Below are positions 3,165 to 37,256 of a stretch of DNA of 37,256 nt, one piece after another; the stretch's first letter is position 1; each line of letters starts with the position of its first letter. The notes beneath the pieces are model-generated. The model had not been told where the DNA came from, did not search any database, and worked only from the letters and a program-made list of their open reading frames with translations. The translations under genes were made by a program, and so were the position numbers. This stretch comes from a virus. Its lineage: Duplodnaviria; Heunggongvirae; Uroviricota; Caudoviricetes. Location: the IMG/VR virus record IMGVR_UViG_2537561978_000007, one strand, 5' to 3'.

Positions 3165-4265
3165 TCATTCCATTTCGAAATCATCAATCCTCACTTCAAG
3201 CTCCAGACTGGTCGTAAAACCGTTATCCGGGCTGACGGTATGTGTCAGAGTCGTAATGGTCCATTCCGCATCATCTATCGGCTGTTTAAAACCACTGACC
3301 TTCACAGGCATTTCCGTGTAGAGATCTGCCCGCCCTTCCGCCAGTTGTAGCGAGAATGACGCAACGCCACGTTGCAGGCGTTCCCACTGCATTTTCGCTG
3401 CCCGTTCGGCGTTACTCCGATTGGCATAGGTGCGATTGAGTACCAGCACGTTTTCATCCGTACCCACCAGGTAATCACCCTGCTTCACTTCCGGCTCTTT
3501 CTTCTGCTTCTTAGTTCTGCGCTTACGCTTCACCGTGGTGCTTTCTTTCTTCGCAGGTTCGCGGGTATGCAACCAGCTGGCAATGACGCCCGTGTAGGCT
3601 CCGCGATCTGCCAGGGTAAAGCGGTGACTGTCGCCGTCCTTGCGTGTGATAGTGATCACTGGCAGTGGTTTACCAGTGGCGCTTTTGCCCTGCCCCTGCC
3701 GGATGAATAACAGATTGCCATTTTTCACCGACGCGATGGCACCGTACTGTCGCGCCAGCCGCATCAGAAAACTGCCGTCACTCTCATTAGTCTGGTCTAT
3801 ATGCTCCACGGGCTTATCCGACAGGTCTTTACCCAGTGCCATCTTCAGCTTGTGACGCGCGGCTATTTCCTTAACCACTTCCCCGATGGTGGTGTTATGC
3901 CACGATTTTTCACGGCGGGTATTCAGGGTTTCCCGAAAATCAGCACTTCGCGCCCGGATAGTCAGGCGGTCCGGTGCGCCAGTGTGTTCAATCTCGTCCA
4001 CCGTGAATGCCCCTTTCGGGAAAAGCGGCTGCCCCTTCCAGCCCAGCGCCAGCGTAATGACCGCACCACGGCGCGGCAGCACGATTTTTCCGTCAGCGTC
4101 GTCCAGCTCCAGATCAAGCTGGTCCGCTTCAAAGCCCCGGTTATCCGTCAGCGTAAGCCCCATCAGGCGGTTGTCCAGCACAGTGGTGATATCCTTGCCT
4201 GCAATACTGATGCTGAATGCCGGAGTTTTGTTGCTTTTGTTAAGCAGTTCAGAGCTGAAATTCAC
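3165..4265 (-). CDS. D: Tail protein D (late control gene D)
   Basis: 366 aa; P2 gpD-like sequence and position between U and ogr. Confidence 0.9.
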   Translation of the reverse strand: MNFSSELLNKSNKTPAFSISIAGKDITTVLDNRLMGLTLTDNRGFEADQLDLELDDADGKIVLPRRGAVITLALGWKGQPLFPKGAFTVDEIEHTGAPDRLTIRARSADFRETLNTRREKSWHNTTIGEVVKEIAARHKLKMALGKDLSDKPVEHIDQTNESDGSFLMRLARQYGAIASVKNGNLLFIRQGQGKSATGKPLPVITITRKDGDSHRFTLADRGAYTGVIASWLHTREPAKKESTTVKRKRRTKKQKKEPEVKQGDYLVGTDENVLVLNRTYANRSNAERAAKMQWERLQRGVASFSLQLAEGRADLYTEMPVKVSGFKQPIDDAEWTITTLTHTVSPDNGFTTSLELEVRIDDFEME

Positions 4266-4747
4266 GACAGCAGCCCTCCAACCGTTTTACTGATATCGCT
4301 TAAAGCAGACGTTGCCGTGTCCTGCAGATTATTCAGTTGAGTACTGAGATCACCGAACATATCGGACAGGGATTCATCCACCCGTTTTAGCGACAGGGTG
4401 AACTCAATCCGGCGCGGCATACCGTCGCGGAAAAACTCCGTTTTAGTCTGATTCAGTCCCTCAATCACATACATGCCGTAAATCGTGCCGCTTCCTTCAA
4501 TCAGGGGCCATGCTTTCCCCTGTTCTGCCATCTGCTCCAGTGCCAGTAACGACAGCCTGCCGCCTGTTATCTCCGGCATAAGAACACCGGAAAGCGTCAG
4601 CATGTCGTTTTCCGGTCCCAGAAACTGCGTGGACGGACGACGGTTTACCCTGCTGTTTGCCGCATGTCGCCAGCTGCGTTGATACTGCAGCTCCTGATAC
4701 GGCACGGTGCGCAGCATAAACACGTACAATCCCAGCACCATCATCAT
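4262..4747 (-). CDS. U: Tail protein U
   Basis: 161 aa; 4-bp overlap with D start; P2 gpU-like. Confidence 0.85.
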   Translation of the reverse strand: MMMVLGLYVFMLRTVPYQELQYQRSWRHAANSRVNRRPSTQFLGPENDMLTLSGVLMPEITGGRLSLLALEQMAEQGKAWPLIEGSGTIYGMYVIEGLNQTKTEFFRDGMPRRIEFTLSLKRVDESLSDMFGDLSTQLNNLQDTATSALSDISKTVGGLLS

Positions 4748-7700
4748 GCGTCGTATCCCCCCTGATCGCTGTAGTTACTCCTGGCTTTTGCCTTCAGCCT
4801 GCGTTCACGTTCATCAAGCTGACGGGCCACCTCCCGCGCAATATCCTGCGCACTTTGTCCTGGCTGCGTCTGAATGATGATCTGCGTCGGTGCCTCAATC
4901 CGTTGAACGGGCGGCACAGTGGCTGCACGACTCACCATCGCTTCGCCGCCTTTCGCGGGAAGTGCCAAAGGATGTAACGGTGGAAGCTCTGCAGGCGCGG
5001 CAGCAACGCCCATCATTCCGGCAACAACAGCAGCCAGTGCAGCGGTATTTTTCCGGCTGGTCACATTTGCCGGGCCGTTAACAATTTCCGGCCCGTTTTC
5101 ACCGACGATGCCAAACTGCCCGCGCGGGATATAGCCGCCGCTGTCATACATCCCCGCAAAGCCATATCCCCATGACGGAAAACCACCCGATGGCATCATC
5201 ACTTTGCCGTCTGCATTCACCGTCGCAGGTTGCTGACGCGTCACGCGTTCCGGCAGTTTTGCCTTTGCGGCCTCTTTACTGACAATGCCGAGTTTTTCCA
5301 GCAACCAGGATACGCCGGATTTCAGGGAGTCCAGCGGATGCATGACCATATTCAGTCCTTCCGCCAGTGCCTCCCCGAATCGTTGCCCCATTGCCGCTGC
5401 GCTCTGCAGTTCAGCAGAGGTCGACTTAACGGGCGTCAGCAGATCAGTAAACCAGCCCCACAACGCCTGCACTTTGTCGCCAATCCACTGGAACACAGGC
5501 TTAAGTGGTTCGAATGCGGCACTGACGGGACCAGCCGCTGCTTTGAATCCTTCCACCACGCCACCGAGAAATGCGGTGATGGGTTGCCAGTATTTCCAGA
5601 CAACCAGTGCCACACCCGCCAGTGCTGTAACCACAAGACCTATTGGACTAAGCAGAGCACCTAACAGACCAGATACGGCATACAGGGCAACGCGCAACAT
5701 CGCCAGTGGACCAGATGCCAGTACTCGCAGCACCGCGCCTGCGGCGGTCAGTCCACCGCGTAGTGCTGCCAGTGGATTCATAAACATCACAGCAACCGCA
5801 CGTAAACCGGATAATCCAGACCGCAACAGTGCAACCGGCGCACCTGCTACAGTTTTCAGGACATTTCCCGTCAGTGATGCCGTGCGGCGCAAAGACGACA
5901 ACGGCGCAGTAAGTAAACCCGCGGCGTTGCCCGATGAAGCAAGCCCGCGTCGCAGCTGTGCCAGTGGTGCGCCAGCCAGCCAGGACAACGCGCTGCTGGT
6001 TCGAGTTACTGCTGCCGTAACGGAAGGTAACGTTTTGATACCCAGCACAGAGAATCCCAGACGGATCACTGCCAGCGGCCCCAGCACTGCAGCCAGCGCT
6101 ACCGCTAAGGTGCCGAGGCCTACGGTAACCGCAGCCACCACAGCGGCTACTTTCATCAGTGTGCCTGTCAGTCCCGGGTTAGCTTCCACCCAGCGGCGCA
6201 ACGCCCCCGTGATGCTTTTCACCGTGTACAGAATATCCATCAGCGGCTGGCGCAGCGTCTCGCCCAGGCTGCTGAAGGTGTTCTGCGCTCCGGTTTTGAT
6301 CAGCAACCACTGCGCAGAAAGTGAGTCCTTGTTAATGTCGGATTCTTTCTGCATGGAAGCGAGCGCATCATTGCCCGCTGTCAGTTTTAGCTGGCGCTGC
6401 AGTTCCGGAAGGTTGTTTGCCAGTTTCGCCGCGTCATCACCAAACTCTTTACCAAACAACATGGTCATGGCAGACAGACGCTTGTCCTGCGGCAGTGCGT
6501 TCACCTTCTCCAGCACACGCTGGATAGTTCCCATCGCATCCTTCGTCATCTGCTTTTCAATCACTTCAGGATTGAGTTTCAGCAGATTCATCCCTTCAAA
6601 GAAACTCTTGCTTTGCATGGTGGCAATGGACAATTCACGCACCATCGCGTTTGCTGCACTGGCTGCAACCTCCGGCGCAGCGCCCAGTGTCAGAAAGGTG
6701 GAACCCAGTGCCGCCGCTTTACGATAATCCAGACGGTCAGCCACACCGCCCAGACGTTGCATCACATCAATGATGTCCGCCCCTTTCGACATGGCGTTAT
6801 CATCCAGATAGTTCAGTGCATCGCCGAGCTGTTCAATATTGCGGGTAGGTATTTTGTAGAGCTGGGCGATTTTCCCCAGACTTTCTGACAGTTCATCCGC
6901 TGGCAGCTCAAAGGCTGTTGCCGCCTTTGCTGCCGTACTGGCGAAGGCCAGCAGGTCACGTTTCTGGTCTTCCCAGCTGTCGTCAGGGTTTGCGACGTTC
7001 ATGCGCGCACCACCTTCAACCAGTGCAGCGAAGTCCACCGCACCGTTTTCCATCGGCAACTGTTCGCTGGCAGCCTTGATGGCATCCTGCATTTCATAAA
7101 AACGTACAGTGCGGTTGCCATTATCGTCACGCAGACCATTGACCTGCTTTGCCACACCTTTCATGGCATCTTCCATGCTGGTATAGCTTTTTACTGCCGC
7201 CATCACTGGCGCACCCATTGCCAGCCCTGCAGCCGTGGTAGTGGCTCCGGCTCCTGCGATGCGATCGCGCACTTCAAGCCGTCTTGAGTATTGTTCTCTG
7301 GCAGCGTTCATCCGTGCCTGTTGTTCACCCAGACGTTTAAGTGCTTTTTGCTGACCCTCCAGTGCCTGCCTTGTTTCTTCAGCATTTTTCTTAAGTTCTC
7401 GCTGGGCACTACTGAGTTGTCTGGTATCAATCCCTGATTCTTTAAGTGCCTGACGTTGTCTTTGGACCGCCCCCAACAAGCCGTTATAGGTCTGCTGAAG
7501 TTCCTGTACTCGTGTTTTGGCCTGACTGAATAACTTTGCCTGCGCGGCGGTTGGCCTGTTAGTGGCAGCAAATTGTGTGGCGAGTTTTGCCGCCTCTTCG
7601 CGGGCTGCGTTCAGGTTGTTGGCTGTTATGGCTAGTTGCGAGCGCGTCTTGCGAAATTCATCAATTCTGCCAGCCTGCTTATTCAGTTCTTTGAGGCTGT

Positions 7701-34891: not shown

Positions 34892-35113
34892 CTAATTAAG
34901 GTTTAGATTGCATTCTGAAAGCGCATCAACGGTCATTGCTGCTATGTTGATCATCACTTTTTCGCGTTTTTTATCTTTGCGCAGACGGTGACGGATAAGG
35001 CGTCCATCAGCCAACATGTCATTGATGGTATCGATGGATAGCCCTGTCAGCTCGCTATAGCGTTCAATAGTCACATGAGGCGTGGTAAGAGTGATTGAAA
35101 TGTTAGGTCTCAT
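34892..35113 (-). CDS. apl: Apl/Cox-like excisionase and repressor of the lysogenic promoter
   Basis: 73 aa HTH protein, first gene of the lytic operon, divergent from cI. Confidence 0.7.
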
Positions 35114-35238: not shown

Positions 35239-35808
35239 ATGAATTTGGAGAAAGGCGGACGAGGCGCCATAGAGCGCATGGTAGAAGCTTATGGATTCAA
35301 GACTCGACAGGCGTTGTGCGATCATTTAGGAATCTCTAAAAGTACACTCGCCACACGCTACATGCGTGACTCATTCCCAGCAGAATGGGTAATCCAGTGC
35401 GCCCTTGAAACGGGCACCTCGCTTAATTGGCTCACAACCGGACATGGTTCAAAGCAAACTTCAGGTAATACAAATACTATGGAAGTTGCTAAATATGTAT
35501 TATCTGATGGTGCCTTGCGTGAAGACGGTTTTTATATTTTTGATAAGGGATTTCTACCCTCTACGTTTAAAAAACCTTTTGTCATCACAGATAACAATTC
35601 TGAATTTATTTGTGATAAAGAATTTGATGACATACGTGATGGTAAATGGGTAATAAGTATTGATGGCGAAGTAACGATCCGTGACATTACTCGTTTACCC
35701 GGTGGAAGAATCTTCGTCGAGGGTGGAAACAGAGCCTTCGAATGTAAGATAGAAGACATTGAAATAATTGGTAAAATTATAAGTTTAACAGTTAAATATG
35801 TTAGATAA
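35239..35808 (+). CDS. cI: CI immunity repressor (186 type)
   Basis: 189 aa from MNLEKGGRGAIERM...; N-terminal HTH (TRQALCDHLGISKSTLATRY); GGAG RBS; divergent from apl. Confidence 0.75.
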   Translation: MNLEKGGRGAIERMVEAYGFKTRQALCDHLGISKSTLATRYMRDSFPAEWVIQCALETGTSLNWLTTGHGSKQTSGNTNTMEVAKYVLSDGALREDGFYIFDKGFLPSTFKKPFVITDNNSEFICDKEFDDIRDGKWVISIDGEVTIRDITRLPGGRIFVEGGNRAFECKIEDIEIIGKIISLTVKYVR

Positions 35809-35823
35809 TACCGGGAGGAAACT

Positions 35824-36015
35824 ATGCTTGGTAAAGTATTTTTTGTGGTTTTATCATGCTCTTTGTTATTAAGCCCACTAACTACCTATGCTAAAAATTA
35901 TCCTTGTTCTGGGAAAAAGGGAGGTGTCTCTCACTGTACCTCCGATGGAAAATTTGTTTGCAATGATGGAACTATTAGTAAATCCAAAAAAATCTGTACT
36001 AAAAACTCACGATAA
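35824..36015 (+). CDS. Small secreted Cys-rich peptide (lysogenic-conversion candidate)
   Basis: 63 aa; signal peptide [23 protein letters not shown]; four Cys in the mature 40 residues; strong RBS GGGAGG; between cI and int. Confidence 0.55.
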
Positions 36016-36203
36016 CTTTTGCTTTTATATCTGCGTCTAAAATAAAAATGAGCCGCAGGTTAACCGCAAAAGTTACATGCTCACATAGCAAAAAGAATAG
36101 CCAACTTCATTATGGCTTCAGTGAGATGTATGGTCGTAGGATTTCATACATTGACACTGGTTATACATACAGTAAAAATGCTCTCTACTGGAGGGCATTT
36201 TTT

Positions 36204-37256
36204 ATGGCAGTACGAAAACTCACCACTGGGAAATGGCTTTGCGAATGTTACCCCGCCGGACGAAGTGGGCGTCGTGTGCGTAAACAATTCGCCACCAAAG
36301 GCGAAGCACTGGCTTTTGAGCGCCACACGATGGAAGAAACCGAAGCAAAGCCCTGGCTGGGTGAATCAGTGGATCGTCGAACACTGAAAGACGTGGTTGA
36401 GCTATGGTTCAAACTACATGGTAAATCTCTGACAGCTGGGCAGCATGTCTATGACAAATTGCTGTTGATGGTTGACGCTCTGGGCAATCCTCTTGCAACC
36501 GATCTCACCTCTAAAATGTTTGCCCATTATCGAGATAAACGCCTGACAGGCGAGATCTACTTCAGCGAGAAATGGAAGAAAGGAGCAAGCCCGGTCACCA
36601 TTAACCTGGAGCAAAGCTATCTAAGTAGTGTTTTTAGCGAACTATCCCGTCTGGGCGAATGGTCGTATCCGAACCCACTGGAGAACATGCGAAAATTCAC
36701 CATCGCAGAAAAAGAGATGGCATGGCTTACCCATGAGCAGATTGTTGAATTGCTGGCTGATTGCAAACGTCAGGACCCAATTCTGGCACTGGTAGTTAAG
36801 ATATGCTTAAGCACAGGCGCACGCTGGCGTGAAGCCGTAAATCTTACCCGCTCACAGGTGACCAAATACCGAATTACCTTTGTCAGAACGAAGGGGAAGA
36901 AAAACAGAAGCATCCCTATCAGTAAAGAGCTTTACGAAGAGATCATGGCGCTTGATGGGTTCAATTTCTTCACAGACTGCTATTTTCAATTTTTATCCGT
37001 GATGGAAAAAACGTCTATCGTGCTCCCTCGCGGTCAACTCACACACGTTCTGCGCCATACGTTTGCGGCGCACTTCATGATGTCGGGTGGAAACATTCTG
37101 GCCTTACAAAAAATTCTCGGACACCACGATATAAAAATGACTATGCGTTACGCACATCTGGCACCGGATCATCTGGAAACGGCGCTCCGTTTCAATCCTC
37201 TGGCAACGCTGCCAAGTGGCGACAAAGTGGCGGCAGCGGTTGGCATTACCCCGTAA
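36204..37256 (+). CDS. int: Tyrosine integrase
   Basis: From MAVRKLTTGKW...; C-terminal catalytic region with ...LRHTFAAHFMMSGGNILALQKILGHHDIKMTMRYAHL (R, H-x-x-R, Y) similar to P2 Int; stop coincides with the window end. Confidence 0.85.
   Translation: MAVRKLTTGKWLCECYPAGRSGRRVRKQFATKGEALAFERHTMEETEAKPWLGESVDRRTLKDVVELWFKLHGKSLTAGQHVYDKLLLMVDALGNPLATDLTSKMFAHYRDKRLTGEIYFSEKWKKGASPVTINLEQSYLSSVFSELSRLGEWSYPNPLENMRKFTIAEKEMAWLTHEQIVELLADCKRQDPILALVVKICLSTGARWREAVNLTRSQVTKYRITFVRTKGKKNRSIPISKELYEEIMALDGFNFFTDCYFQFLSVMEKTSIVLPRGQLTHVLRHTFAAHFMMSGGNILALQKILGHHDIKMTMRYAHLAPDHLETALRFNPLATLPSGDKVAAAVGITP

Follow-up and report, generated by a model that had tools for sequence, protein, structure and literature searches.

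The closest described setting for the gene considered here is the lysogenic operon of 186-like phages. In phage 186, promoter pL drives cI and int, and the record annotation places the repressor gene directly against the integrase gene with no gene between them. In Vibrio phage K139, a member of the Peduoviridae, promoter PL drives cI-orf2-glo-int according to the record, which annotates glo as “periplasmic protein; involved in phage exclusion”. Glo is expressed from the lysogenic promoter (PMC4870250). The interval between cI and int is a defence hotspot in K139-like phages (Rousset 2022, PMC9122126), and an integrase-primase hotspot has been described in P2-related phages (PMC13586616). The stretch analysed here is the 37,256-nucleotide (nt) sequence of IMG/VR record IMGVR_UViG_2537561978_000007, a Caudoviricetes virus (hereafter the window). 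Where 186 has no gene, the window holds an insert with a 63-codon gene of the YdcA family, termed ydcA, which keeps company with cI across related phages and whose product is predicted to be exported to the periplasm.

Glo and the window protein share the kind of phage, the position between cI and int, and a Sec leader. No homology between the two was detected (hhalign probability 0.13, E 0.43). Glo is larger, at 137 amino acids (aa), with few cysteines, and of the two only Glo has a documented exclusion phenotype.

The family to which the window protein belongs has been described sparsely. YdcA proteins (Pfam PF27300; PRK10040 models NF007462-NF007464) combine a Sec leader with a domain of ~35–40 residues that contains four cysteines, a layout shared by the window protein and by the 57-aa chromosomal YdcA of Escherichia coli K-12. 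The literature searched yielded no report of a phage-borne YdcA and a single paper that bears on YdcA function. Deletion of ydcA renders E. coli W sensitive to 300 mM 3-hydroxypropionate (3-HP), and ydcA is treated there as a gene of unknown function (PMC7642389). Earlier work, as cited in that paper, has ydcA induced at pH 5 under YdcI (PMC7642389).

The only solved structure that resembles the model of the window protein is Dis2 (Lpg0823), a subunit of the outer-membrane cap in the Legionella Dot/Icm type IVB secretion system. Dis2 is periplasmic and pinned by disulfides (PMC8486379), and it contacts DotC, DotD, and DotK near the outer membrane (PMC8486379, PMC12716638). The protein has been said to be restricted to Legionellales, to have no obvious homologues in organisms with a prototypical type IV secretion system (T4SS), and to be without structural neighbours (PMC8486379, PMC12716638). 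Dis2 forms part of a secretion machine and has two lobes with five disulfides, whereas the window protein has a single lobe with four mature cysteines.

The window gene (35824..36015, + strand, 63 codons plus stop) is already catalogued. It is not an orphan but a member of a named family that has no established function. NCBIfam model NF007463 matches over the full length with 115.3 bits against a cut-off of 93 (E 7.7e-34), and the chromosomal K-12 type model, NF007462, gives 67.6 bits against a cut-off of 118. The profile phrog_6000 (PHROG 6000, function unknown) aligns residues 3-59 to profile positions 1-56 of 56 with an E of 9.2e-34. RefSeq names this exact sequence “YdcA family protein” (WP_000900884.1), and the Pfam family PF27300 “YdcA” is precomputed on a 95%-identical cluster representative. 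The local copy of Pfam lacks a YdcA model, and its sole match is a spurious GULLO2-like one (E 0.07). An exhaustive profile search returns 463 clusters at 50% identity with E <= 0.001. Foldseek finds no meaningful match for the structural model among the viral models of BFVD.

E. coli itself carries a chromosomal paralogue of 57 aa with the same motif and 73% tblastn identity over residues 23-59 (K-12-like record H75). In comparison with that chromosomal protein, the window protein falls in the phage-borne subfamily (NF007463, phrog_6000), is more basic, and ends with two extra basic residues at the C-terminus. Its gene is fixed directly 3′ of a phage repressor.

A sequence-only reading of the window had proposed a 63-aa open reading frame (ORF) with a GGGAGG ribosome-binding site between cI and int, and the coordinates and the identity of the flanking genes are confirmed. 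The Shine-Dalgarno sequence GGGAGG (35813..35818, + strand), read from the sequence, lies 5 nt before the ATG at 35824. Residues 1-23 (35824..35892, + strand) form a predicted Sec signal peptide for signal peptidase I (SPase I), with MLGK as the n-region, a 12-residue h-region of mean Kyte-Doolittle value 2.86, and a predicted cleavage site with T at -3 and A at -1. The signal peptide was judged by its n/h/c layout and by conservation of the Ala at -1 rather than by a dedicated predictor. That residue, A23, is invariant in the 31 homologues of alignment A1, and the remaining leader sequence is free to vary, a pattern that supports the Sec leader proposed earlier.

The mature peptide (35893..36012, + strand) is a predicted cationic domain of 40 aa, with a mass of 4.26 kDa, a pI of 9.6, and a net charge of +7. 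Its cysteines lie at residues 28, 38, 46, and 58, in agreement with the four-cysteine, 40-residue product described at the outset. Among the 31 relatives in A1, C38 and C46 never vary and C28 and C58 hardly do; the 29-sequence subset A2 has all four without exception. The invariant columns of A1 are K32, G33, G34, C38, F44, C46, D48, G49, S52, S54, and K55, while P27, C28, S29, and C58 are nearly invariant in A1 and invariant in subsets A2 and A3. The YdcA motif includes PCSG.KGG[IV] and, further on, F[VI]CNDG..S.SK..C. A fifth cysteine, C12, lies within the signal peptide and is not conserved among the homologues of A1. The AlphaFold2 (AF2) model has a per-residue confidence (pLDDT) of 84-92 across the core of the mature domain, and a positive charge recurs in the cores of 62 of 64 other species-level relatives. 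Taken on these features, the ORF very probably encodes a genuine exported, cysteine-rich small protein of the YdcA family.

The gene is a fixed companion of cI and not variable cargo. Alignment with related prophages separates two blocks of homology, one comprising cI and ydcA up to 36007 and the other an int block that starts at 36115-36146. Wherever a ydcA-bearing prophage holds extra cargo, the cargo is located between ydcA and int. The sequence-only reading had pointed to other prophages as the place to look for homologues, and they are indeed present in E. coli, Klebsiella, Yersinia, and Hafnia and in Haemophilus phage HP2. Diverged alleles in E. coli and Klebsiella stand in the order cI-YdcA-KAP_NTPase-int (loci L018/L025, KAP NTPase at 4198-5529). 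In a Hafnia prophage (L029) the cI-ydcA block is followed by an uncharacterised 347-aa protein (3247-4290), and Yersinia prophages carry the pair with a diverged allele. In HP2, a signal-peptide OB-fold protein lies between the blocks; its ydcA homologue, of 60 codons, overlaps the stop codon of cI (TAATG) and is absent from the GenBank annotation. No partner gene common to the region downstream of ydcA was found in HP2, Moraxella phage Mcat15, or plasmids pGFJ6 and pA40P1.

The two genes also diverge together. Between two E. coli variants (the window and L018 3414-3977), cI residues 1-62 are identical and the C-terminal domain has diverged, in parallel with ydcA, to 72% and 70% identity, respectively. 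Over longer distances the repressor changes the most: window CI is 32% identical to CI of 186 and 33% identical to CI of HP2, yet the YdcA core motif is kept in HP2 almost residue for residue.

The cI-int interval as a whole behaves as an accessory and defence slot. In sister phages without ydcA, the entire interval is taken up by PD-Lambda-1 or by a 349-aa protein (L005 813-1862). Cargo such as PD-Lambda-1 and the KAP NTPase thus shares an interval with ydcA, but the cargo varies downstream while YdcA stays with cI. Escherichia phage vB_EcoM-813R9 (L006 822-2498) carries PD-Lambda-1 (DUF4041 + T5orf172) at the rcdA att site (PADLOC, 3e-120).

Selection on ydcA is strong and purifying. Between five sampled E. 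coli genomes with diverged alleles, 10-11 synonymous differences stand against 1-3 non-synonymous ones, which gives a ratio of non-synonymous to synonymous change (pN/pS) of 0.03-0.11, a constraint comparable to that on cI and int. The amino-acid changes are confined to the leader or to K24R; otherwise the mature peptide is the same in E. coli alleles whose synonymous sites differ by about 23-26%. The order cI-ydcA-int beside rcdA is found in all five sampled genomes (5/5).

The gene is also common. Of 5,426 complete E. coli genomes, 630 contain the ORF at >= 90% nucleotide identity and 648 contain a window-type cI gene. DNA identical to this locus (100%) is present in E. coli genomes such as SF-468 and APEC O1:K1:H7 strains, where it marks the right-hand end of a 186-like prophage adjoining rcdA and ybjJ. 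Among the carriers are isolates of gut, avian, and extra-intestinal origin. In IMG/VR, ydcA is found in at least 532 viral contigs; that scan gave only near-identical loci of the E. coli type and is uninformative on diversity. In E. coli B95.deltaA (L193, B lineage), the prophage is degraded, with truncated cII and replication endonuclease genes, and cI-ydcA-int is intact. ATCC 8739 (L012) carries the gene as well. A 3-kb contig labelled “MAG: Bacillota bacterium” (L113, JAEWTL010000113.1) contains cII, cI, ydcA, and int at 95-99% protein identity to the E. coli prophage, and its Bacillota label most likely reflects binning contamination.

Relatives of YdcA outside this operon provide the main clues to what the domain does. 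Dis2 is the top match in the Protein Data Bank (PDB) both by profile and by Foldseek, the latter with a probability of 0.97 and 38% identity over 39 columns for the AF2 model. The profile match (E 1.3e-5) owed much to the signal peptide, and the mature domain alone gives an E of 0.12, which is not significant. Owing to this weak score, the case for the link was remade with Foldseek, pairwise alignments, and the Pfam family assigned to an orthologue. Each of the two Dis2 lobes can be aligned to the mature peptide (pairwise E 3e-5 and 2e-4; hhalign E 1.7e-4) and has the motif C..GG[IV]..C...G..VCN[DN]G..S, and a Dis2 orthologue carries PF27300. YdcA is therefore probably kin to the lobes of Dis2. 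Dis2 as a whole (P0227/P0228; PDB 7MUC/7MUD, chain AN) looks like a tandem pair of YdcA-like domains.

Other relatives are tied to nucleases. In 6 of the 20 long family members scanned, the YdcA domain follows the leader directly and is fused to a nuclease of one of three unrelated secreted folds: three of the Endonuclease_NS type (P0172, P0170, P0199), two of the SNase type (P0120, P0217), and one of the phospholipase D (PLD) type (P0183, PLDc_2). A separate secreted SNase gene lies directly after the YdcA gene in both loci read for this arrangement, those of Brucella oryzae (L123, 2986-3670) and an uncultured bacterium (L185, 3001-3917). Two more Brucella loci (L131 and L135) have SNase-like matches shortly after the YdcA gene. 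Locus L151 is also listed among the nuclease-associated YdcA loci.

A third group of relatives is found near machines that span the envelope. Neighbourhoods were counted over 80 loci, one per species, and a gene with a VasL domain lies within 3 kb in seven of these (L145 and the Enterobacterales loci L129, L141, L147, L164, L178, and L187). In Kluyvera sp. (L145, 92-6155), a 134-aa YdcA-domain protein is encoded within a type VI secretion system (T6SS) cluster, in the order TssB-TssC-TssE-x-YdcA-T5orf172-ImpA_N/VasL, and one relative (P0115) is a YdcA-VasL fusion. A UniRef cluster carries the label “Conjugal transfer protein”, an automatic name that cannot be traced to a source. Homologues of ydcA are mobile cargo in several contexts, and plasmid copies adjoin TraD or MobA genes. 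These small plasmids, of 4-5 kb, include pGFJ6 (mobilizable; L007 640-816) and pA40P1 (typed non-mobilizable; L008 2267-2440). With respect to the literature searched, the strict cI-YdcA pairing across Peduoviridae of Enterobacterales and Haemophilus is new, as are the HP2/S2 gene that the annotation misses, the probable relationship between YdcA and the Dis2 lobes, and the associations with nucleases and T6SS.

The best overall explanation, with a probability of about 0.4, is that the phage-borne YdcA is an exported binding module that acts on DNA entry. The precursor would be exported through Sec and cut after Ala23, and the strongly basic 40-residue product would probably fold once in the periplasm, its four conserved cysteines pairing into two disulfides. 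Given its own Shine-Dalgarno sequence, a gap of 15 nt after the cI stop, and no terminator in between, ydcA should be made constitutively in lysogens from pL, as a two-gene block with the 186-type cI. A hairpin before int would limit read-through and int translation. The YdcA domain may be a small cationic periplasmic module that binds an envelope face or nucleic acid. Relatives would use it to hold proteins at envelope-spanning machines, such as the Dis2 cap and the T6SS, and to equip secreted nucleases. The free phage-borne form would interfere at the envelope with incoming foreign DNA, providing superinfection exclusion that complements repressor immunity.

That last step, superinfection exclusion, is tentative and somewhat less probable than an even chance; its best precedent is the non-homologous Glo in the same operon of K139. 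Bolder still, and doubtful at present, is the proposal that the YdcA domain is an unrecognised periplasmic module for DNA or for DNA-translocating envelope machines in general, with the cI-linked copy as a minimal exclusion factor of ~4 kDa. Such a module would explain the fusions to three nuclease folds, the tandem use in Dis2, and the presence in T6SS clusters.

Several observations weigh against the exported module acting on DNA entry. The 3-HP sensitivity of the chromosomal ydcA deletion and the cited induction at acid pH (PMC7642389) point to stress tolerance over exclusion. A cI or int gene lies near the YdcA relative in 9 of the 80 species loci and most have no phage neighbours, which indicates that the primary role of the family is not phage-specific; most of the family is chromosomal, and phages and plasmids have captured one branch. 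Phage copies are not always beside a repressor either, as Moraxella phage Mcat15 (L003 3438-3617) has its homologue among tail genes, away from the repressor, and Acinetobacter phage Ab11510-phi (L004, about 3430-3605) among unnamed hypothetical genes. In E. coli MB50 (L017 417-1596), the IS5-like insertion sequence ISKpn13 lies between cI and the 3′ half of a ydcA-like gene, leaving a pseudogene and thus a natural knock-out. No defence family of PADLOC-DB 2.0 matches the YdcA protein at E <= 1, in a search where cargo from a sister phage matches PD-Lambda-1 at 3e-120. Dis2 is dispensable and of unknown function, and its loss has subtle effects (PMC12716638). No experimental or expression data were found for the window ydcA.

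Part of this evidence would suit a host-fitness role, a form of lysogenic conversion in which the prophage supplies an extra dose or variant of chromosomal YdcA against envelope and acid stress. The benefit would be better survival of the lysogen in an acidic gut rich in organic acids, and not the blocking of other phages. This role is possible though doubtful. The chromosomal paralogue in E. coli, the 3-HP sensitivity of the deletion with the cited induction at pH 5 (PMC7642389), the predominance of loci with neither cI nor int nearby, and the gut, avian, and extra-intestinal carriers all agree with it, but the link to acid comes from one paper without a mechanism. Stress tolerance would also leave unexplained both the strict placement after cI across phages of Enterobacterales and Pasteurellaceae and the associations with nucleases and secretion machines. 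Those machine associations could instead mean that the single lobe docks, like Dis2, on T4SS, T6SS, or pilus complexes and so alters conjugation, the activity of the T6SS, or the availability of receptors in the lysogen. The relationship to Dis2, the Kluyvera T6SS copy with the VasL neighbours and VasL fusion, and the conjugation-related label and plasmid neighbours are in keeping with such docking. It is nonetheless unlikely, given that no such machine is encoded among the prophage genes read (replication endonuclease to int) and many E. coli hosts have no partner system; the subtle effects of Dis2 loss (PMC12716638) and the automatic origin of the UniRef name count against it further.

The remaining explanations are much less probable. 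The sequence-only reading had offered a toxin-like peptide among its suggestions, and a secreted, bacteriocin-like cationic antimicrobial might be expected to be small, highly charged, and rich in disulfides, as this +7 peptide is, and to occur on 4-5-kb plasmids. A plain Sec leader, however, delivers a protein to the periplasm only, and the flanking genes are cI and int, with no adjacent export, processing, or immunity gene. The same species conserves a chromosomal paralogue, few relatives are phage-linked, and the domain also serves as the N-terminal module of enzymes, so a toxin-like role is very improbable. An outer-membrane lipoprotein of the Cor/Llp type, which would exclude phages by masking their receptor, was suggested by the loosely lipobox-like VVLSC around C12 in the leader and by one relative named “Lipoprotein” in UniRef. 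This reading was rejected because C12 is not conserved: most homologues lack it, among them HP2 and the 70%-identical allele group. C12 is also only 12 residues from the N-terminus, with more hydrophobic leader after it, and the invariant feature is instead the Ala at -1 of the SPase I site. Equally disfavoured is a functionless ORF that hitch-hikes with the C-terminal segment of cI. The low-GC block (34-38%) common to ydcA and the 3′ half of cI, their joint divergence, and the one copy disrupted by an insertion sequence would fit a passenger, but a pN/pS of 0.03-0.11 with a mature core invariant across alleles would not. Nor would a passenger keep its core motif from E. coli to Haemophilus next to a cI that is only 33% identical, or be retained in a degraded prophage.

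The significance of ydcA depends on which of these explanations holds. The gene is common in E. coli, probably expressed together with the immunity repressor, and has no assigned function. As an exclusion or envelope factor, YdcA would add a very small periplasmic protein to prophage-encoded defences and would give a first functional handle on the YdcA family and, by extension, on Dis2. Should it be a module for DNA entry, foreign DNA, whether phage, conjugative, or transforming, would be blocked in about 12% of sequenced E. coli, including the B lineage and ATCC 8739. As a stress-tolerance paralogue only, ydcA would be an ordinary lysogenic-conversion gene.

The remaining features of the locus concern the genetic switch and the way to int. 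On the - strand, divergent from cI, a 73-aa ORF (34892..35113) encodes a small apl/cox-like regulator in the position of apl in 186 (RefSeq: hypothetical, between CII and CI) and represents the early lytic side of the switch. On the + strand, the 186-type repressor gene cI (35239..35808; Phage_CI_repr 2.7e-33, Phage_CI_C 5.2e-29; RefSeq “phage repressor protein CI”) is the first gene of the lysogenic operon and ends with a stop codon at 35806-35808, 15 nt upstream of the ydcA ATG. The tyrosine integrase gene follows (36204..37256, + strand; Int_N 3.2e-32, Phage_integrase 7.2e-22; RefSeq “phage integrase”), with rcdA and ybjJ beyond it. A 395-nt insert of low GC content (36% GC) separates cI from int, and the low-GC tract (34-38%) starts within cI at mid-gene and runs through ydcA to about 36150.

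The placement of ydcA on a lysogenic cI-int transcript, as the sequence-only reading had it, holds in part. No terminator-like site was found between cI and ydcA, and the records of 186 and K139 annotate such a lysogenic operon; ydcA is thus probably co-transcribed with cI from pL and made in lysogens. Continuation of that transcript into int is questionable. An A-run/stem/U-run hairpin that resembles a terminator (36174..36202, + strand; -15.9 kcal/mol, z = -6.1) ends 1 nt before the int ATG, and its 3′ arm holds the int Shine-Dalgarno sequence GGAGGG (36190-36195). With this U-run and the buried Shine-Dalgarno, efficient expression from the pL transcript may stop after ydcA. The hairpin is part of the int module, which is 95% identical to that of Klebsiella phage 4LV2017.

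The spacer between ydcA and int contains further structure, for which Rfam returns no RNA family. Directly 3′ of ydcA is a long hairpin (36010..36075, + strand), and the fold of 36010-36215 has an energy of -64.1 kcal/mol (z = -5.4). This hairpin lies within a stretch of 108-138 nt that is unique to the window variant, at the place where other prophages hold cargo. A promoter-like sequence, TTGACA-17-AAAAAT (36151..36179, + strand), matches the consensus at 10 of 12 positions and is a candidate only, the number of promoter-like sites in the region being no higher than expected from shuffled sequence. The hairpin before int would damp int expression from the lysogenic transcript, and transcripts from the candidate promoter would lack the 5′ arm of that hairpin. 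The layout of the int leader suggests that int may be expressed differently from read-through and from local transcripts.

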